From Candidatus Campbellbacteria bacterium RIFOXYC2_FULL_35_25 (GTDB taxonomy: Bacteria > Patescibacteriota > Minisyncoccia > Phycocordibacterales > UBA12079): a stretch of 64,000 bases of DNA. Shown here in pieces: positions 4,769 to 60,144 of this stretch. Both the position numbers and the translations under genes were made by a program. The notes beneath the pieces were generated by a model. It saw nothing but the letters and a program-made list of their open reading frames with translations, had not been told where the DNA came from and ran no database searches. The DNA is taken from the NCBI GenBank assembly GCA_001774495.1, contig MFAE01000002.1:42372-106371 (forward strand), written 5' to 3'. Positions within the stretch are counted from its first letter, which is position 1. Every line of letters begins with the position of its first letter.

Positions 4769-5368
4769 TTAATAAGCGCCAAACAAAATCCAGTTTTTTG
4801 CATTTGGAGTCGATAAAAAAATACTATTGCTTCCTCCCCAAAAAGTTGTATTTTTCATATTTGCAGGTATAGAATTCCAATTTTCGGAAACATTCACCAT
4901 TGCTATTGCGTAATCTTGCATGTTTGCACTTGTTTTGTAGAAGAGCCCATCAAAGGCACCAACGAAGAAGCCAGAAGTGGGTATGGAAGGGTCAATCGGC
5001 CTTGTTTTTAAATAAGGAGAAAGAACTGCTAGTTTGTTTAAATCTCTCCACGCGACAATTCCACATTCCCAACAGTCCATGTTACTAGCCCCTACTGTTG
5101 CGTTGTTTGGGTAACTTCCATTTTCATTGTAATACATCTCTAAAGCAATTTGAACTTGTTGTAAACCCTGCACTCTTTTAATATCTCTCGCTTTCGATCT
5201 CGCGCTATTCAAAGAAGCCATTACTACACTTGAAAGCAAGCCAATAATAGAAATAACTACCAACAATTCAATTAAAGTGAAACCTAGGTTGTTTTTTAGT
5301 TTCGCCGTCGCCTTGAATGAATTATTTAAAGAGTTTTTAGTTTTTGTTAAATTTAATTTTTTAAACAT
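4769..5368 (-). CDS. type IV pilin-like (prepilin N-terminal methylation motif)
   Basis: Leader followed by GFTLIELLVVISIIGLL (class III signal peptide and hydrophobic alpha-helix). Confidence 0.65.
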   Translation of the reverse strand: MFKKLNLTKTKNSLNNSFKATAKLKNNLGFTLIELLVVISIIGLLSSVVMASLNSARSKARDIKRVQGLQQVQIALEMYYNENGSYPNNATVGASNMDCWECGIVAWRDLNKLAVLSPYLKTRPIDPSIPTSGFFVGAFDGLFYKTSANMQDYAIAMVNVSENWNSIPANMKNTTFWGGSNSIFLSTPNAKNWILFGAY

Positions 5369-5373
5369 ATATT

Positions 5374-5637
5374 TTATTCAGGTATTATTACACCCATTTC
5401 TTTTAATTGTTGTAATTCTTCAATACCCAGTTCTCTTCCCGGAGTAGAATTAGTAGATCCACTTGACCAAATTATTACAATAGTCAGCAATACACAAAGA
5501 ACAATAATCCCTAGCATTACTTTGTTAGCTTGTTTTTCATCTTTTACCCCCATTTTCATAAGAAGTTTTGTTATAAAAGAAACCTTTTCTCCCCGAACTC
5601 TACCCCTTACTTCTTCTTGAAATTCTACGTTTGACAT
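5374..5637 (-). CDS. small hypothetical membrane protein
   Basis: ATG start, one TM segment. Co-oriented with the pilin gene. Confidence 0.35.
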   Translation of the reverse strand: MSNVEFQEEVRGRVRGEKVSFITKLLMKMGVKDEKQANKVMLGIIVLCVLLTIVIIWSSGSTNSTPGRELGIEELQQLKEMGVIIPE

Positions 5638-9598: not shown

Positions 9599-10372
9599 AT
9601 GAAAATAACAATTTTAGGAAGTGGTTCATTCTATACAAACAAGGAAAGGTCAGGGCCTTCGTATTTGTTAGAAGTTGATGGAAAAAAGATATTAATTGAT
9701 TGCGGTCCTGGAACATTGATGAGACTCTCCCAGCTCGGAGTAAATCCAACAGAAATAGATTATGTATTTATTTCGCATTTTCATGCTGACCATACTAGTG
9801 ATTTATTTGCTTTCCAAATGAACTTCAGATTAAACGACTTTTTTTATGCAAAAAAGTTAGAAAAGTTTCCAACTATTTACGGACCAGTAGGAATTGAAAA
9901 TTTTACTCAAAAATTGTCACAAGCTTATCAGTTACCGGCTTTTGAGGATTGGGTTAACATAAAATATGAGAATCTTAGCAGTACTCTTACGCTTGGGGGG
10001 CTTACAGTGAAATCATTTCGTACAAAACATACTGCTTTTGGGGTTATCGCCGATGCTTACTCATTTAGGTTTGAGTTTGAAGGGAAGTTCGTTGCTTTTT
10101 CTGGTGATAGCATAAAAGACATCGGGGTAGAAAATGCGTCCAAGGATGTAGATTTATTTATTTGTGATTCCTCTTGTACAAAGGGAAATGCTAGTCCGGC
10201 ACATATGGATACTTATGAAATAGGAGAAATCGCTGAAACAAGTAAGGTAAAGAAGGTTGTTTTAAGTCATTTTTATCCAAATACAGAAGATATCGATATG
10301 GTTGGCGAGGTAAAAGAAAAATTCTCAGGTGAAGTCATTCACGGGGAAGATTTTATGGAGTTTAATTTATAA
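9599..10372 (+). CDS. MBL-fold metallo-hydrolase (RNase Z/ElaC-like)
   Basis: LIDCGPG...YVFISHFHADHTSDL matches the HxHxDH metallo-beta-lactamase motif. Confidence 0.7.
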   Translation: MKITILGSGSFYTNKERSGPSYLLEVDGKKILIDCGPGTLMRLSQLGVNPTEIDYVFISHFHADHTSDLFAFQMNFRLNDFFYAKKLEKFPTIYGPVGIENFTQKLSQAYQLPAFEDWVNIKYENLSSTLTLGGLTVKSFRTKHTAFGVIADAYSFRFEFEGKFVAFSGDSIKDIGVENASKDVDLFICDSSCTKGNASPAHMDTYEIGEIAETSKVKKVVLSHFYPNTEDIDMVGEVKEKFSGEVIHGEDFMEFNL

Positions 10373-15601: not shown

Positions 15602-16354
15602 ATGAATAAATTAATATTTTTAGATACAGAAACAACAGGCAACGATTTAAAGGAGGATCGTTTGTGTCAGGTTGCCTACAAAATAGAAGGTGAGGAAATA
15701 AAAACCAAAAATTTTAAACCAACAGTTCCCATTTCTATCAAAGCCATGAGTATCACCAATATTACAAATGAGATGGTTGAAAATGAATCAGCCTTTAAGG
15801 GGAGTGCCATGGCCGAGGAATTACAAAGTTTGTTTAAAGATGATGTTCTTGTTGCTCATAATGCCAAATTTGATATCGCTATGTTAGAAAATGAAGGGTT
15901 AGAAATTTCTAATTATATTTGTACATTAAGGTTAGCTAGATATTTAGATGAAGAGCAAGAAATTCCAGAATATAATTTGCAATTCCTAAGATATTATTAT
16001 GCTGTTAAATTTTCCGCCGGAGGCGGATCCGCCTCAGGAGGAGATGTTGAAATAGTTGCTCACAGTGCCGACGGGGATGTCCTTGTACTAGAGGCTGTCT
16101 TTAAGCATCTTTATGCTAAAGCAAAAGAAAAATCTAACAATTCTAGCCACGAAGAAATAATAAAAAGAATGATTGATATTTCCAACAAGCCTTCCCTTAT
16201 TCGAAAATTTGCATTTGGAAAACATATCGGGCGTCTTACGGAAGATGTTTTAAAAGAAGACAGGGGATATTTGGAATGGCTGTTGCGAACAAAAAAAGAA
16301 GAGGGAACTGATGAGGATTGGATTCATACTCTTAATTATTACCTATCTAAATAA
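15602..16354 (+). CDS. DEDD-family 3'-5' exonuclease (DnaQ/Pol III epsilon-like)
   Basis: Exo I motif FLDTETTG, Exo II VAHNAKFDIAML and a C-terminal Exo III region. Contains an in-frame Gly-rich insertion encoded by a palindromic mini-repeat (16015-16050). Confidence 0.7.
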   Translation: MNKLIFLDTETTGNDLKEDRLCQVAYKIEGEEIKTKNFKPTVPISIKAMSITNITNEMVENESAFKGSAMAEELQSLFKDDVLVAHNAKFDIAMLENEGLEISNYICTLRLARYLDEEQEIPEYNLQFLRYYYAVKFSAGGGSASGGDVEIVAHSADGDVLVLEAVFKHLYAKAKEKSNNSSHEEIIKRMIDISNKPSLIRKFAFGKHIGRLTEDVLKEDRGYLEWLLRTKKEEGTDEDWIHTLNYYLSK

Positions 16355-44930: not shown

Positions 44931-45465
44931 CAAATTGAAACTGTTTATTTCCTACGGGAAATAGACTTAAATGGTTGGAACTGAATTTTCTAGCTTGCTA
45001 GAAAATTCAGGAGACAATGATATTGCATCTCAAATCTATATCCGTTATCCCAGATATGCGTTACTGGGAAATGAAGCGAAACAAAAGAAAGGTTGTACCT
45101 TCTTAGTTTTTAGTTGATAGTTTTTAGTTTTTAGAAAATTCTAAATTTTATCTTTGTCGTTTGATGCATGTAAATATAAGAAATTAAAAAACTCTATGAA
45201 GTTTATTAGCTTGCTAATAAACTTCATAGAGTTTTTTAAATAATCCTAAAATTAGCGTACTTTGGCGTCGCGATTCATAAAATATCAGTCGTCGTATAGA
45301 AAATACGCCTCCTTCTCTTTTATTCTCGCTCCACCAAATTACATCTAATTTTAAAATTATTTTTTAATTGCGAAAAACGTAACATTTTGTTATATTTTAG
45401 AGGTTAATTTTGAGGAAAAATCGTCTTTGCGAGGCGAAGCCGAAGCAATCCAGAATAAATAATAT

Positions 45466-45665
45466 GCGAGTGTAGCTCAGGTGGACTTTTTTCTGAAAGA
45501 AAAAAGCAACGGCTAAAGTGTTTAGGCTTTTTATCCGGTTTCTGCCAAAGGCAGAAAATCGCCGAAGTGAGTCCCTAAGGGCGAACAGGCGATAGGAGGA
45601 TAGAGCGGTTCGACAGTCTTCCAGATTGTCTCACCTGATAACGACGAGGGACCTCGTCATTGTAA
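45466..45665 (+). pseudogene. degenerate partial copy of tRNA-Ile (5' acceptor/D-arm and anticodon-arm remnants with ~150 nt of insertions, no T-arm)
   Basis: GCGAGTGTAGCTCAGGTGGA is identical to the tRNA-Ile 5' end. The later GATAGAGCG and CTGATAACGACGAGG resemble D-stem and anticodon-arm segments. Confidence 0.45.
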
Positions 45666-45695
45666 TTATTTGAAAGTTTAATATAGTAAACACAG

Positions 45696-45769
45696 GCGAG
45701 TGTAGCTCAGGTGGTTAGAGCGCGTCACTGATAATGACGAGGTCGTAGGTTCGAGTCCTACCATTCGCA
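45696..45769 (+). tRNA. tRNA-Ile (anticodon GAT)
   Basis: GCGAGTGTAGCTCAGGTGGTTAGAGCGCGTCACTGATAATGACGAGGTCGTAGGTTCGAGTCCTACCATTCGCA. Cloverleaf with 7-bp acceptor stem (one G:U), GTTCGAGTC T-loop and anticodon loop CTGATAA. Confidence 0.85.
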
Positions 45770-46200
45770 CAATTTTAAAACACCAAATCTTTGATTTGGT
45801 GTTTTAAAATTGTGCGAATGGAGTAAAGTGCCTGCGCACTTTACGTTAGGACGAGAAAGGCGGAGACATGTTTCTGTAGCGAAGTGAAAGAAACAGTCGA
45901 GCCGTGACGACAAGTTCTTAATAAAAATGAGTCCGTAGGATGAAATTTTTATTAAGAAACTTGAAGTCGAGTCCTACCATTCGCACAAAAATATAATAAA
46001 ACCAGAGCAATTCTCTGGTTTTATTATATTTTTGTAGCAGAATGGTATGACTCGAACGGCGGAGGCGGTATGCAAGATAAATTTTTTCGTAAAAAAATTT
46101 AGGCTTGTCGCCGAGCCGCGTTCAGCGATACTTATTATTTCTGAGTGCGAAGCACAAAGAAAATAATTAGTAATCGCGGGACGAGTCCTACCATATTGCA
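45770..46200. repeat. array of structured modules each ending in a copy of the tRNA-Ile 3' end (GTCGAGTCCTACCATTCGCAC at ~45968-45990; GACGAGTCCTACCAT at ~46180-46195; inverted copy TTGTGCGAATGG at 45810-45821)
   Basis: Direct and inverted copies of the T-arm/acceptor 3' half. Long hairpin GTTCTTAATAAAAAT...ATTTTTATTAAGAAC. Modules are homologous to those at the tRNA-Gln locus. Confidence 0.55.
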
Positions 46201-46261
46201 TAGTTTATCGTTTTTTATTTTCTGATATAATTTAAAATATAATAATTAACCTTTTATAATT

Positions 46262-46543
46262 ATGAAAATATTATCAAACATACTTTTCTTTCTTAATATT
46301 TTGTTATTTTTTGTTGCAGGACTATTCGCCATGTTATCTGGTATGATAAGCGATGTTCCAGGTGATCATTCTTGGGATGTCCTTTTTTTATTAATGAGTT
46401 TTTTACTGCCCATTTTGATTTTAATATCTTTATTTTATTCTAGAAAATTTTATAAGGAACAATATTACAACAAATCAAATTTAATCTATGTAATTTTGTT
46501 TGTATACTATATTTTTCATTTTTTTGTATTAAGTTTGTTTTGA
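46262..46543 (+). CDS. small hypothetical membrane protein
   Basis: ORF with three hydrophobic helices. AT-rich. Confidence 0.35.
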   Translation: MKILSNILFFLNILLFFVAGLFAMLSGMISDVPGDHSWDVLFLLMSFLLPILILISLFYSRKFYKEQYYNKSNLIYVILFVYYIFHFFVLSLF

Positions 46544-51385: not shown

Positions 51386-52065
51386 ATAGCATTGAACCCC
51401 CTTCTTTGCAGAAGGGGGTTTAACCATTTGGCCATATGGCCTTTTTCTCTCTGTACGATTTAAAGAAGTGAGCTGAACATAAAAATAACCCGGTAAAAAC
51501 GAAACCCGCAATCCATGGATGCTTAAAGAAAAGCAACAGTCCTCCTAATCCAAGGGATAGGACAAGGAAAACAAGTCCAAAATTTAGGTCTCCTTTGCAG
51601 TCAATCATTCTCGCCCTCCTCGTCTGACTCATCTGCTTCGACGAGACTTTTGTTCTCGTAAGAAGAAACAGCTAATATTCCTCCAATAAAAATTATAGCG
51701 ATTGAGGCGCCTCTATCCTTTTCAGAGTCTTCTTCGCCGAAAAATATGCCGGATAATCCGATTAAAATGAAAACGATTCCCAGTAAGACTTTGCCATTTA
51801 TTTTATATTTCCCCATCCTTTTTCTCCTCACTACTTGTTTTTGTTGAGAAAACTGTTTCTAATCAGAGTATAACAGGATTTTCTGTTGATTCAAACAAAA
51901 AAGAGATATTCATACAAGTGAGCAAGAAAATACTTGATTTTTTGTCCGTAAAAAGCTTTAATCATAGTTATATTATAAGATCGTTTAATCTCGTAGCAGA
52001 TCATTTCGCCGGATCGTCGAAGTGGTGGAAATGAAAAGCAAACTGGTTTAGTATTAATATAATAT

Positions 52066-52136
52066 TGCCGGATCGTCTAATGGTAGGACTGCGGTTTCTG
52101 GTACCGCCAATCTAGGTTCGAGTCCTAGTCCGGCAG
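52066..52136 (+). tRNA. tRNA-Gln (anticodon CTG)
   Basis: TGCCGGATCGTCTAATGGTAGGACTGCGGTTTCTGGTACCGCCAATCTAGGTTCGAGTCCTAGTCCGGCAG. U1:A72 pair, anticodon loop TTCTGGT, T-loop TTCGAGT. Confidence 0.65.
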
Positions 52137-52575
52137 CAACAAATAAAAACAACAGCTTTTAGCTGTTGTTTTTATTTGTTTTGATGCCGAGACTAGCAAG
52201 GTACCTGCGTACATTGCGTAGGATTCGAACAGGCGGAGGCTTGTCGCACGGAGCGAAGCGAGTACGACAGCCGAGCCGAGCCTACGAACACTTAGGCTTT
52301 TGGAGTGCGAAGCACGAACAAAAGACTTAGTGATTCGGAGGTCGAGTCCTAGTCCGGCAGCATAAGATCGTTAGACCCTGAGTGATGAGCTTAGGGTCTT
52401 ATTATTTTACCTGACGGACTAGGACTCGAAAAGAGCGAAATATATTTTTTCGTAATGAAGTGAAGAAAAAAATTTGAGCGACGTGACGACGAGTTCTTAA
52501 CAAAAATGAGTCCACAGGATGAAATTTTTGTTTAGAACTGGAAGTCGAGTCCTAGTCCGGCAGCTTTGGAAAGAA
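52137..52575. repeat. array of modules each ending in a copy of the tRNA-Gln 3' end (TCGAGTCCTAGTCCGGCAG at ~52342-52368 and ~52548-52570; inverted copy at ~52410-52435); an upstream 5' partial copy GCCGGATCGTCGAAGTGGTGG lies at ~51997-52020
   Basis: Modules share long stretches with the tRNA-Ile locus array (GTGACGACNAGTTCTTAANAAAAATGAGTCCNNAGGATGAAATTTTT...GAAGTCGAGTCCTA; GGCGGAGGC...TTAGGCTT...GAGTGCGAAGCAC). Confidence 0.55.
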
Positions 52576-52646
52576 ATCAAAATGATTGGTGTGGGGGGGG
52601 GTGAAAATCCTAGTCTCATAACATCCCCCTATGATATAATTTCAAC

Positions 52647-53057
52647 ATGAAAATATTTATTATTTGCAGTAAAAATTTTTACGATAAAATCCCAGGTATT
52701 GAAAAGACATTGGAAGAAAATGCTCACATAATAACTTTACCTAATTGTTTTAAAGATCCTGCTACTGAAGGAAGATTTCGAGACCTTGGAAGAGAAGAGC
52801 ATTCTAAATGGAAAGCCGAAAAGTTAAGACATAGTAGTGATGTTATTGAAAATAATGATGCCGTGCTTGTTCTTAATTTTGAAAAAAATGGTATGAGCAA
52901 TTATATTGGAGGTGCCACTTTTTTAGAAATGTATGACGCCTTTAGATTGAGCAAAAAAATATTTTTATATAACGATATTCCCGAAGGAATTTTGAAGGAT
53001 GAAATTATTGGTTTTAATCCAATACTTATTGGTGGTGATTTGAGTGTTATTAATTAA
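52647..53057 (+). CDS. nucleoside 2-deoxyribosyltransferase-like / Rossmann-fold nucleotide-binding small protein (putative)
   Basis: MKIFIICSKNFY...YIGGATFLEMYDAFRLSKKIFLY pattern resembles the nucleoside deoxyribosyltransferase-like fold. Assignment is tentative. Confidence 0.4.
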   Translation: MKIFIICSKNFYDKIPGIEKTLEENAHIITLPNCFKDPATEGRFRDLGREEHSKWKAEKLRHSSDVIENNDAVLVLNFEKNGMSNYIGGATFLEMYDAFRLSKKIFLYNDIPEGILKDEIIGFNPILIGGDLSVIN

Positions 53058-59677: not shown

Positions 59678-59765
59678 GAGGAAAGGTTAGGTCTCTGCGA
59701 AGCGCCGTGTCCGCCTCTGGCGGGGAAGAGGAGTGAGAGGCGTGGCGTCTGGTAGTAATTTTTAT
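59678..59765. repeat. family C repeat copy 2 with a nested CCGCCTCTGGCGG palindromic mini-element
   Basis: GGTCTCTGCGAAG...GGCGTCTGGTAGTAATTTT matches 16493-16545. The inserted CGCCGTGTCCGCCTCTGGCGGGGAAGAGGAG segment relates to the 62885-62925 and 16015-16050 elements. Confidence 0.6.
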
Positions 59766-59815: not shown

Positions 59816-60062
59816 TTTTTGGAGCAGAATTTGGTCTTCCATTTCTAAATGGAATTGATAGTGATTCGGTCATAAATATTTTTCCTGACGGAAAAATTTT
59901 GCGACCCCGCCTCGCGGTGCTCGCCTTGTGTTTGCAAAGCAAACACAAACTCGCACATCACTCTGGCTTTCGAATCCTACACATAAGGCAAGCAGGTGCC
60001 TTATTCTCGGCGACACTAAATATTAAAAACCCTAAGCTTTTTGCTCAGGGTTTTTAATATAG

Positions 60063-60144
60063 TGCGCCGGGTAGGATTCGAACCTACGAAGGCTAAGCCA
60101 GCAGATTTACAGTCTGCTCTCGTTGACCGCTTGAGTACCGACGC
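60063..60144 (-). tRNA. tRNA-Tyr (anticodon GTA), class II with long variable arm
   Basis: Reverse complement: GCGTCGGTACTCAAGCGGTCAACGAGAGCAGACTGTAAATCTGCTGGCTTAGCCTTCGTAGGTTCGAATCCTACCCGGCGCA. Anticodon loop CTGTAAA, T-loop TTCGAAT. Confidence 0.8.

Follow-up and report, generated by a model that had tools for sequence, protein, structure and literature searches.

The closest described counterparts of the sequences treated here are the RtT repeats of Escherichia coli (RF00391, rttR), 178-bp repeats of the tyrT-tyrV region. The tyrT transcript reportedly releases the rtT RNA, which may be connected with the stringent response (Bosl and Kersten 1991, as cited in PMC3318445 and bioRxiv 10.1101/2024.07.17.603846). 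In the E. coli genome (NC_000913.3) four RtT units lie behind tyrT/tyrV and score 133-138 bits with the Rfam model RF00391. Each unit starts with GGGGAAGGAU and ends in AAUCCUUCCCCCACCACCA, with an insertion and a diverged T-arm 5' copy in between; the Rfam structure draws the GGGGAAGGAU-type complement and the AAUCCUUCCCCCACCACCA copy as a closing stem.

Other RNAs carry tRNA-like handles or mimics (mascRNA of MALAT1, the t-elements of plant mitochondria, viral TLS and bacterial YrlA), in which an acceptor/T-stem-like helix sits on another RNA and may recruit tRNA-processing enzymes; these keep the T loop or the elbow. Partial tRNA copies in genomes are widely ascribed to integration (PMC9897764). 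In Patescibacteria, introns recognised by the group I model interrupt functional tRNA genes in the anticodon loop (Nakagawa et al. 2026, PMC13011429).

Here we describe structured modules adjoining the tRNA genes of a 64-kb stretch of DNA (the window, 64,000 nucleotides). The modules are a previously undescribed relative, in design, of the E. coli RtT repeats and most likely not integration scars. Our preferred reading, to which we give a probability of roughly 0.55, is that they are RtT-like structured RNA modules, co-transcribed as part of tRNA trailers, which duplicate and spread among the tRNA loci of a Parcubacteria (CPR) group.

Anatomy of the modules at the tRNA-Ile locus

As folded, a module is a three-way junction of 130-180 nt. 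Its closing helix, P1, consists of the duplicated last ~20 nt of the adjoining tRNA (T loop to discriminator) paired with their complement. An optional hairpin with a CNNY loop, P1a, takes the position of the D and anticodon arms, and the T loop is replaced by two arms, P2 and P3. P2 contains an invariant G-R-A / G-A internal loop, while P3 (68 nt) has a CUUA/UUAG box, a GA/GAA loop and a GAA-triloop tip. Each module thus amounts to the acceptor/T-stem minihelix of a tRNA whose T loop carries an insertion of ~110 nt. ARAGORN and the Rfam tRNA model call only three real tRNAs in the window and do not recognise the modules as cloverleaves. Around one of the three, tRNA-Ile, the features are as follows.

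45368-45396, plus strand: promoter-like site (TTGCGA, 17 nt, TG-TATATT) upstream of the 5' module; weak, from a consensus scan only
45466-45665, plus strand: 5' module upstream of tRNA-Ile, from repeats and folds
45660-45687, plus strand: promoter-like site (TTGTAA, 16 nt, TATAGT) ending 8 nt before tRNA-Ile, from a consensus scan only
45696-45770, plus strand: functional tRNA-Ile(GAU), CCA not encoded (ARAGORN; Rfam tRNA 72.2 bits)
45761-45821, plus strand: perfect palindrome, 29-nt arms 45761-45789 / 45793-45821, 3-nt loop (repeat search)
45810-45988, plus strand: module A, type A, from folds (shuffle z = -10.7; model R1 77.9 bits sense, 24.4 antisense)
45810-45821, plus strand: module A, 5' strand X'
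45823-45844, plus strand: module A, hairpin P1a with CUGC loop
from 45847, plus strand: module A, complement of T stem and T loop
45859-45904, plus strand: module A, P2 with the motif GGC[GGA]GAC...GUC[GA]GCC
45903-45970, plus strand: module A, long arm P3
45967-45988, plus strand: module A, 3' strand X, a copy of tRNA-Ile positions 56-75 plus 2 nt
45985-46035, plus strand: second perfect palindrome, 23-nt arms 45985-46007 / 46013-46035, 5-nt loop (repeat search)
46036-46200, plus strand: module B, type B, from folds (shuffle z = -7.3; model R1 78.6 bits)
46038-46057, plus strand: module B, 5' strand, complementary to tRNA-Ile positions 53-70
from 46058, plus strand: module B, P2
46117-46184, plus strand: module B, P3 with GUGC-GAA-GCAC tip
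46182-46200, plus strand: module B, degenerate 3' copy CGAGTCCTACCATATTGCA

The preliminary description of this DNA had noted that the modules end in copies of the tRNA 3' terminus, and the repeat search bears this out. The 22-nt TCGAGTCCTACCATTCGCACAA occurs exactly at 45751-45772 (the end of tRNA-Ile) and at 45967-45988, where strand X of module A is identical to the tRNA end at 22/22 positions; CGAGTCCTACCAT occurs for the third time at 46182-46194, within a degenerate copy in module B that equals the tRNA end at 20/24 positions. The start-to-start spacing of these copies is 216 and then 214 nt. Allowing at most one mismatch, GTCGAGTCCTA occurs 7 times in the 64-kb window against 0.41 expected. 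Also correctly noted was an inverted acceptor segment downstream of the tRNA, TTGTGCGAATGG at 45810-45821, which lies within the palindrome with 29-nt arms; this palindrome takes in the last 10 nt of tRNA-Ile, a terminator-like hairpin and then strand X' of module A. The terminator-like hairpin AAAACCAGAG...CUCUGGUUUU between modules A and B is the second palindrome. A similar ACCAGAG hairpin was seen after a tRNA-Ile 3' copy in the Campbellbacteria contig L126.

Two statements of the preliminary description need amendment. The conserved long hairpin attributed to each module has a homologous arm in module B, but the quoted sequence (TTCTTAATAAAAAT 45915-45928 / ATTTTTATTAAGAA 45945-45958) is that of module A only. 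The modules, said to carry no ORFs, are crossed by mechanical minus-strand ORFs at 45758-45913 (51 aa) and 45974-46201 (75 aa), which had no Pfam match where the gene caller reported one.

In module A the 5' strand complements the module's own 3' strand exactly (A opposite U68) and is not copied from the 5' strand of the tRNA, which has G opposite position 68. In module B the closing helix, as read from the sequence, is still paired though both strands have drifted from the tRNA sequence. Strain variants of the contig are identical over the locus except for a 10-N scaffold gap (L004), and no empty site was found among them; extending the contig gave no further tRNAs of the same genome.

The upstream element was first taken for a degenerate 5' copy of the tRNA lacking a T arm. 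The missing T arm and a 19-nt match stand (GCGAGTGTAGCTCAGGTGG, exact at 45466-45484 and at 45696-45714 within tRNA-Ile), but the element is more than a degenerate copy. Exact tRNA-Ile positions 1-19 are followed by a ~110-nt structured D-loop insertion, the D-stem 3' strand GAGC, the anticodon loop CTGATAA, GACGAGG (the 3' anticodon stem) and a terminal hairpin formed with an inverted complement (45643-45658 in the module as drawn, 45650-45661 in the repeat search); past the first 19 nt these remnants were matched by eye, automatic gapped alignment to the tRNA being uninformative there. About 100 nt of the insertion are homologous to one that precedes tRNA-Tyr in L160, a related contig; over the last 42 nt of this homology 37/42 positions agree, with the compensatory change ATCGCC/GGCGAT to ATTGCC/GGCAAT. 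Related modules occupy tRNA 5' leaders as well. The consensus scan found no promoter-like site between tRNA-Ile and the modules, which have no recognisable promoter of their own.

The tRNA-Gln and tRNA-Tyr loci of the window

Search of the remaining tRNA genes for the same modules, as the preliminary description had suggested, was rewarding: both types recur at tRNA-Gln, a divergent one lies at tRNA-Tyr and others were found in related contigs (see below).

about 52008-52030, plus strand: short 5' partial copy near tRNA-Gln
52066-52137, plus strand: tRNA-Gln(CUG), second locus of the same arrangement (tRNA call)
52185-52362, plus strand: type B module behind tRNA-Gln, from folds (model R1 79.1 bits)
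52412-52564, plus strand: type A module behind tRNA-Gln, without P1a, from folds (model R1 72 bits)
59859-60018, minus strand: divergent module behind tRNA-Tyr, from folds and repeat comparison
60062-60144, minus strand: tRNA-Tyr

Between the Ile and Gln loci the type A modules are 79% and the type B modules 64% identical. Both modules behind tRNA-Gln terminate in the 3' end of that tRNA, type B closing in TCGAGTCCTAGTCCGGCAGCA and type A through a contiguous helix of ~18 bp. The tRNA-Tyr module has an X' strand (TAGUGUCGCCGAG), a P1a hairpin with a CCUGCU loop, a T-arm complement and a P2 of the form GCC[AGA]GUG...CAC..GA GGC; its P3 is of another kind and gave no match to the canonical P3 model, and its 3' copy is only partial (CGAAUCACUA). 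Contig L171 was considered as a natural variant of the tRNA-Tyr locus and set aside, the acceptor pairing being broken and the contig probably a chimeric low-coverage assembly.

Distribution among related contigs

A strict pattern scan of metagenomes yielded 7 more loci, all on AT-rich contigs, and in 7/7 the match follows a tRNA immediately and in the same orientation (Glu three times, Lys, Ser-GGA, Ser-GCU and Val). Further modules follow Trp and Leu tRNAs in contigs L129 and L159. Modules of at least two types are recorded behind at least ten tRNA species or isoacceptors, in a family that was gathered with a pattern taken from this window and is biased in its ascertainment accordingly. A genome-contig scan with the pattern GGCGGAG..CGAGCCG..TCGARTCC was swamped by chance matches in GC-rich genomes, and its contigs L006-L125 were dropped after a GC check. 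Three patterns run against viral contigs (IMG/VR) returned chance or GC-rich matches or none, with no sign of the family, and blastn of the module array against phage records found no match.

The ends of the modules are matched to the local tRNA: in 10/14 the 3' strand is a near-exact 19-27 nt copy of the end of the adjoining tRNA, and the 5' strand pairs with it. The 5' strand must have been re-templated when a module type moved between tRNAs. In L161SerB the 5' strand suits the tRNA of L163 and not its own, so re-templating does not accompany every transfer.

These observations bear on serial site-specific integration, the process favoured by the preliminary description, in which the modules would be CIME-like miniature elements bounded by attL/attR tRNA cores and served in trans by a tyrosine integrase whose gene lies elsewhere. 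The repeat spans the T loop to the tRNA 3' end (~20 nt), the typical extent of an att core, direct repeats equal to the 3' segment of the target tRNA are present, and the units stand in tandem arrays. Presence and absence differ between the syntenic relatives L159 and L129, and relatives bear other 5' and 3' partial tRNA copies around their tRNAs. So far the att-like repeats and the occupancy differences fit that proposal, yet the elements measure only ~200 nt, and the Pfam tables for the 64 kb, in which some short ORFs are unannotated, contain no integrase, transposase or reverse transcriptase, in line with the earlier remark that no integrase is nearby. The same interior is found behind tRNAs for Ile, Gln, Val, Lys and Ser, each time with ends proper to that tRNA, so that one element type does not go with one att sequence; with different, locally matching tRNA ends around shared interiors, one attP cannot account for the modules. 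The complementary 5' strand, which integration does not need, is kept paired by compensatory and G.U changes. Some arrays in L159 are plain tandem duplications that take in the trailer, as unequal crossing-over would. We consider integration unlikely.

The tRNA-Glu loci argue in the same direction. Their modules contain no tRNA-derived repeat at all and are nonetheless conserved, 87-89% identical in three species at orthologous loci whose downstream flanks are unalignable; a recognisable promoter lies upstream of the tRNA only. Module occupancy varies between close relatives, as expected of selfish elements. The Leu-Lys spacer is 26 nt in L129 against ~300 nt with a module in L159, two genomes too diverged for the boundaries to be set. 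In L131 a tRNA-Leu lies nested within a second one, itself split in the D loop.

Covariation and strand

In the P3 alignment 89.9% of the cells are paired compared to 71% in shuffles (0/500 as high) and 37-47% in slid controls, and 17/25 pairs show compensatory changes. For P1a the values are 96.7% paired and 8/9 pairs compensatory, the hairpins having been chosen by eye before counting. The inner helix of P2 varies around its fixed loop (GAC/GUC, GGC/GCC, GCG/CGC, GCC/GGC, GUG/CAC), and in P1 of module B and of L164ValA the pairing has been kept by compensatory and G.U changes after divergence from the tRNA. Decaying tRNA pseudogene fragments that, together with ordinary terminators and chance hairpins in AT-rich spacer, would serve no function could explain the degenerate third 3' copy and the abundance of partial tRNA copies in these genomes. 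Such decay does not predict the covariation, the invariant internal loops, the z-scores of -7 to -11, the cross-species identity at tRNA-Glu next to unalignable flanks or the recurrence behind at least ten isoacceptors. The decayed remnants envisaged in the preliminary description are already disfavoured, and we regard them as the least probable of the explanations considered.

The signal belongs to one strand. The sense MFE is below the antisense MFE in 14/14 modules, G.U pairs number 32 in sense and 15 in antisense, model R1 scores 72-85 bits across the modules in sense against 14-24 in antisense, and its strong matches (15/15) all lie on the tRNA strand downstream of a tRNA. Together with the covariation and the ~88% conservation at the tRNA-Glu loci, several lines point to a probably functional RNA encoded on the tRNA strand, and the small-RNA option of the preliminary description is well supported by them.

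Perfect palindromes of 20-30 bp recur at module loci, which brings to mind elements recognised as folded single-stranded DNA, such as REPIN/RAYT, the ends of IS200/IS605, integron attC and the attP of CTX phage; here the stem would mimic the duplex of the tRNA-gene end. Mini-hairpins of the GCGAAGC type are unusually stable as DNA; they occur in the modules, and the closing stem does reproduce the tRNA-gene duplex. Selection on a DNA hairpin, however, leaves the strand asymmetry unaccounted for: the tRNA strand has twice as many G.U pairs, the sense fold is the stabler one in every module, the antisense model score is ~50 bits lower and all copies are co-oriented with the tRNA. The Pfam tables of the window also list no HUH, tyrosine transposase, Xer or integron integrase. 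A DNA-level hairpin element is therefore, in our judgement, very improbable.

Searching 45300-46300 and 51900-52650 against Rfam at E up to 10 gave no family match for the modules; the palindromes drew only nonspecific matches to long hairpins of the miRNA type. Hammerhead and K-turn readings of the junction and of the GGA/GA loop were dismissed by eye, their consensus nucleotides not being conserved. A group I intron was likewise rejected, with no Intron_gpI match at E up to 10 and an uninterrupted functional tRNA.

Comparison with known systems and proposed mechanism

Like the modules, RtT units lie in the 3' trailer of a tRNA, on the same strand and in tandem, begin with a complement and end with a copy of the tRNA from T loop to 3' end that together form the closing stem, can be read as a partial tRNA copy whose T loop holds an insertion, and contain GAA-triloop hairpins and GAGCGAAAGCGAG-like motifs. 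The RtT model gave no match to the modules in 45300-46300 and 51900-52650 at the gathering threshold or at E up to 10. Conversely, the P3 model matches only the 13-nt GAA-triloop tip of E. coli RtT at E ~2, and we therefore claim no homology between the two. The E. coli units examined follow the tyrT/tyrV tRNA-Tyr only, whereas the modules are of at least two types, follow at least ten tRNA species and have tRNA-specific ends. Unlike in RtT, P1 spans the whole acceptor strand with CCA not included, related 5' modules occur upstream of tRNAs, there is no Tpr-like ORF and the host is a CPR bacterium.

The att copies of genomic islands, prophages and CIMEs resemble the modules in their 3' repeats that start at the T loop, tandem accretion and partial copies near an intact tRNA, but att elements are kilobases long, whereas the modules have ~200 nt, no integrase, a selected complementary strand and RNA-type covariation. 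Group I tRNA introns share with the modules the phylum and the tie of structured insertions to tRNA genes and loops; here, in contrast, the functional tRNAs are intact and the insertions lie in the T and D loops of partial copies. From tRNA mimics the modules differ in that a junction takes the place of the T loop and the helix repeats the sequence of its neighbouring tRNA.

We propose that transcription from the tRNA promoter runs on through the modules, that each folds independently, that the tRNA end-processing machinery may trim them at the tRNA-like helix and that they may then serve as stable protein-binding RNAs. Arrays would expand by unequal recombination between the repeated tRNA ends, and recombination through shared T-arm sequence would carry modules to other tRNA loci. 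Two features sit uneasily with this scheme: the terminator-like hairpins between units could stop read-through, and P1, which in several modules runs past the discriminator (12 bp, including 'ACAA'), does not suit trimming by RNase P or RNase Z well.

The perfect palindromes and the re-templating of the 5' strand hint at a DNA-level copying step beyond the RtT-like RNA reading. Along these lines the modules might be self-propagating, intron-like or guide-bearing elements that home to tRNA loops, 3' modules to the T loop and 5' modules to the D loop, with the E. coli RtT as a distant relative. Their ends would pair with the flanking tRNA like internal guide sequences, and on insertion fold-back or template switching would produce a copy of the target's complement, leaving perfect palindromes such as those of 20-30 bp seen here. 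Insertion points recur, at position 54/55 (T loop) and at 18/19 (D loop). The T-loop position holds several unrelated interiors (type A, type B, the Leu type of L159 and the Gln copy of L127), interior homology connects the 5' and 3' module types, and RtT itself is readable as a T-loop insertion. The exact complementarity of the module A strands, including the A opposite U68, and the nested tRNA-Leu with its host split in the D loop also agree with homing. Against it stand the missing match to any catalytic RNA family (Rfam, E up to 10), the fact that no associated protein was found, the L161SerB strand, which suits another tRNA, and the orthologous conservation at tRNA-Glu, which points to selection at the level of the host. 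We hold homing to be a minority possibility, though not a negligible one. With similarly limited confidence we raise the idea that T-loop and D-loop modules, and perhaps RtT, form an unrecognised class of small, protein-less mobile RNA/DNA elements whose guide-like ends are re-templated at each new tRNA and which may drive the replacement of tRNA genes. Such replacement might leave old 5' halves upstream and 3' halves downstream (cf. the nested tRNA-Leu of L131).

The finding has consequences beyond this locus. For annotation, module loci yield partial tRNA matches, spurious small ORFs and assembly breaks or chimeras (the N-gap in L004, the switch in L171). The RtT repeats have been an unexplained oddity since 1978-1991, for ~45 years, and the same design is now that of a multi-member family with strong covariation, of which many sequences are available for comparative and biochemical tests. 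CPR genomes are strongly reduced, and the expense of 400-700 nt per tRNA gene on modules argues for a function or for very effective selfishness. That the RtT design recurs in a distant, extremely reduced lineage suggests a general solution to the handling of tRNA transcripts or a general selfish element.

The tRNA-Ile locus and its repeats

The host of the window is a CPR bacterium, whose MurC shares 67-69% identity with proteins labelled Candidatus Campbellbacteria or Patescibacteria, and the contig is present in several wastewater-type metagenome assemblies. Every repeat that the preliminary description had placed around tRNA-Ile was confirmed.

tRNA genes and repeats at the tRNA-Ile and tRNA-Gln loci
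From 45466: copy of the tRNA-Ile 5' end, 19 nt, exact (repeat search)
45696-45770: tRNA-Ile(GAU) (ARAGORN and Rfam)
45810-45821: inverted acceptor segment (repeat search)
45967-45988: T-loop-to-3'-end copy, 22 nt, exact (repeat search)
46182-46200: third T-loop-to-3'-end copy, degenerate (20 of 24 positions match)
52066-52137: tRNA-Gln, followed by two modules

The locus also holds two perfect palindromes (arms of 29 and 23 nt), and the folds of the two units behind the tRNA are much more stable than those of shuffled sequence (z = -10.7 and -7.3). The 16S rRNA gene lies ~760 nt upstream of tRNA-Ile(GAU) and a terminator-like hairpin (45190-45233; bidirectional, its 20-bp stem perfect) stands between the two, thus tRNA-Ile is probably not part of the 16S transcript. 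The 16S gene is itself unlinked from 23S/5S, ~40 kb away. The 3' part of 23S (1-608) and 5S (2551-2657) are ~1.9 kb apart; a LAGLIDADG_1 ORF (1143-1631) lies within this gap and a LAGLIDADG_2 ORF runs across the window start, both of which look like intron or homing-endonuclease insertions in rRNA.

Anatomy and distribution of the modules

Read from 5' to 3', a module opens with X', which is complementary to the 3' strand of the tRNA acceptor stem. P1a, a hairpin that has a CNNY tetraloop, is optional and comes next, ahead of a stretch complementary to the T-stem 3' strand and the T loop. P2 is a variable-length hairpin on GGC[GGA]GNC...GNC[GA]GCC. P3 is an arm of 68 nt in which a CUUA...UUAG box is conserved; it also has a GA/GAA internal loop, and its 4-bp tip is capped by a triloop (GAA, GUA or ACA). 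The last element, X, copies tRNA positions ~55 to 73/74 and pairs with X' as the closing helix, therefore the module is a tRNA acceptor/T-stem minihelix with a two-armed insertion in place of the T loop. A terminator-like hairpin separates each unit from the next; since X' complements the end of the tRNA itself, this hairpin becomes part of a long perfect palindrome.

The preliminary description had proposed looking for the same modules at further tRNAs. Behind tRNA-Gln the interiors are homologous to those at tRNA-Ile, in reverse order (79% identity between the A types, 64% between the B types), and both modules terminate in the 3' end of tRNA-Gln itself, TCGAGTCCTAGTCCGGCAGC (each at 20/20 identity). 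On the minus strand, tRNA-Tyr has a hairpin behind it and then a divergent module, the start of which complements the acceptor strand and T arm of this tRNA; thus all three tRNAs in the 64 kb have such modules. By a long-arm covariance model the window holds exactly four canonical copies, each adjoining a tRNA. Between the clpB end and the tRNA-Tyr array, a GC-rich segment (ccagacgccacgcctctcactcctcttccccgccagaggcgg..., 59680-59760, minus strand view) is conspicuous in this AT-rich genome.

Outside the window, a strict three-anchor pattern derived from it yielded seven metagenome loci, all AT-rich and all directly 3' of a tRNA in the same orientation: Glu (three contigs), Lys, Ser-GGA, Ser-GCU and Val-UAC. 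Modules at tRNA-Trp and tRNA-Leu(UAA) were added from contigs of protein-defined relatives. X is a near-exact, 19-27 nt copy of the adjacent tRNA end, paired with X', in 10 of the 14 modules analysed; in the three tRNA-Glu modules the closing helix is unrelated (UUUGUG/CACAAA) and the module begins 8-20 nt past the tRNA. No copies were found in viral contigs and phage records. The related sequence analysed, from close Parcubacteria relatives, came to ~0.25 Mb in all. In Campbellbacteria, canonical modules are missing from the loci orthologous to Ile and Gln, where other 5' and 3' partial tRNA copies occur. In one contig (L127, 8370-8500) a 3' half of tRNA-Gln that begins in the anticodon loop has, at the T-loop position used by the window modules, an unrelated structured insertion of ~95 nt. 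In L126 (1720-2115; also L127 and L128) tRNA-Ile is flanked by exact copies of positions 1-38 upstream and 43-75 downstream, with a 26-nt inverted repeat (GTGAAAATAAAATTTTTGAAAATAAT) across the two spacers, a layout reminiscent of split tRNA genes or of a tRNA-carrying insert in an anticodon loop.

Evidence for an RNA on the tRNA strand

P3 positions are paired in 89.9% of cells, against 71% in column shuffles (reached by 0 of 500) and 37-47% in slid controls, with compensatory changes in 17 of 25 pairs. P1a is 96.7% paired, a figure inflated by choosing the hairpins by eye, which leaves the covariation (8 of 9 pairs compensatory) unaffected. The inner P2 helix varies around an invariant loop (GAC/GUC, GGC/GCC, GCG/CGC, GCC/GGC, GUG/CAC). 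The sense fold is the stabler in 14/14 modules, G.U pairs are twice as frequent on the sense as on the antisense strand, and the covariance model gives the tRNA strand 72-85 bits, the opposite one 14-24. This asymmetry disfavours DNA hairpin elements, an explanation we consider very improbable.

Across three species, the module at the orthologous tRNA-Glu locus keeps 87-89% identity while the flanks past it are unalignable, and the sole promoter-like element is upstream of the tRNA. Such conservation speaks against decay, so that the "decayed remnants" of the preliminary description are scarcely credible; its small-RNA option gains from the covariation, the sense-strand asymmetry and the tRNA-Glu locus. 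In module B and in a module behind tRNA-Val (L164ValA), X has drifted from the tRNA and X' has changed in step (G-C to A-U exchange, G.U pairs included), so selection acts on closing-helix pairing rather than on identity to the tRNA.

Comparison with RtT and other known systems

The tyrT operon of E. coli contains 178-bp repeats, each ending in the last 19 nt of tRNA-Tyr, which are the source of rtT RNA. We checked this layout against MG1655 (L167, NC_000913.3 1286700-1287500): four units stand behind tyrT and tyrV, each starting with GGGGAAGGAU, drawn by Rfam as closing stem, and having the end AAUCCUUCCCCCACCACCA. Each also has CUUCGAC(C/U)AAGGUUCGA, which is a diverged version of the variable arm and T-stem 5' strand of tRNA-Tyr, with the insertion after it, thus RtT too is a partial tRNA that has an insertion in its T loop. 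It shares this and the complement design with the window modules, as well as similar GAA-triloop motifs; since no homology was detectable in either direction, we take RtT as a design analogue and not as their family. Bosl and Kersten (1991), as cited in PMC3318445 and bioRxiv 10.1101/2024.07.17.603846, are reported to have found that rtT RNA arises by processing of the tyrT transcript and may be tied to the stringent response. An Rfam scan of the modules (E up to 10) gave no family match beyond hairpin noise, and ARAGORN did not call them as tRNAs. They are also distinct from the group I introns that a recent study describes in tRNAs of Patescibacteria (PMC13011429).

Upstream modules

Related units occur 5' of tRNAs. 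The 19-nt copy at 45466 is followed by a ~110-nt structured D-loop insertion, the D-stem 3' strand, a CTGATAA loop and GACGAGG, and the unit closes in a hairpin formed with the inverted complement. About 100 nt of the insertion are homologous, with a compensatory change, to that in the 5' copy upstream of tRNA-Tyr in L160, and the insertion resembles one upstream of tRNA-Glu in L162. Position 18/19 is a recurrent breakpoint of 5' copies at several tRNAs, and 5' and 3' modules have in common a P1a-like hairpin, GAGCGAAGCGAAG and a GAGUCC..GGAC-GAA tip. In L131 (6150-6500) an intact tRNA-Leu(CAG) lies inside a second, different tRNA-Leu(CAG) split in the D loop (5' part GCTGGAGTGGTGGAATTG, 3' part ending CTCCAGCA), all outer stems of which have kept their complementarity; in the insert, the left arm has a P3-like hairpin, GCGC-GAA-GCGC. 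The arrangement may reflect replacement of a gene through insertion, or an intron that contains a tRNA.

Turnover, spread and origin

The modules at tRNA-Ser-GGA (L161) and tRNA-Ser-GCU (L163) are 97.7% identical over hairpin, 5' strand and interior; each 3' strand is that of the local tRNA and the 5' strand no longer fits in L161, a combination that indicates recent transfer from one locus to another. The tRNA-Leu to tRNA-Lys interval is ~300 nt with a module in L159 versus 26 nt in syntenic L129, and the L159 repeat units take in trailer and spacer, as in unequal crossing-over. In L160, a close relative (MnmA 78% identical), the occupied side of tRNA-Tyr differs from the window. Its second tandem tRNA-Glu module (5250-5520) has a ~130-nt extra insertion between P2 and P3; a ~30-bp palindrome between the tRNA and the first is absent in L158 and L162, hence long palindromes may be separately inserted units. 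Contig L171 (150-250) is identical to the window up to the tRNA-Tyr T stem and then switches to TCCACCCACCA and tRNA-Thr, which leaves the acceptor strands unpaired; the contig is probably a chimera from low-coverage assembly, with its join in the conserved T arm. Together with a 10-N gap at the tRNA-Ile start in L004, this suggests that module-bearing loci disturb assembly.

We propose, with a probability of roughly 0.55, that these are RtT-like RNA modules, putatively co-transcribed with the tRNA. The tRNA-like closing helix would serve folding and end-processing, the invariant loops are predicted to bind protein, and arrays would grow by unequal recombination at the repeated tRNA end. The strongest rival, a loop-homing, guide-bearing insertion element, is possible if unlikely: unlike the RtT-like reading it accounts for why the palindromes are perfect, why breakpoints recur in the loops and why X' has to be re-templated on a change of tRNA, but the L161/L163 pair shows that re-templating is not obligatory. 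Serial site-specific integration, the lead idea of the preliminary description, fits the extent of the repeats and little beyond it; the window has no gene for an integrase, a transposase, a reverse transcriptase or an HUH enzyme, which extends to all 64 kb the earlier remark that no integrase is nearby, and integrase footprints are improbable. The readings are not fully exclusive, as a selfish element can also be a stable RNA.

The window also encodes an RNase T-like exonuclease (15602-16354) and a 257-aa metallo-beta-lactamase-fold protein (9599-10372; Lactamase_B_2 / Apyc1-type matches). The latter could be the RNase Z of this organism, in which case it would bear on the processing of its CCA-less tRNAs and of the modules.
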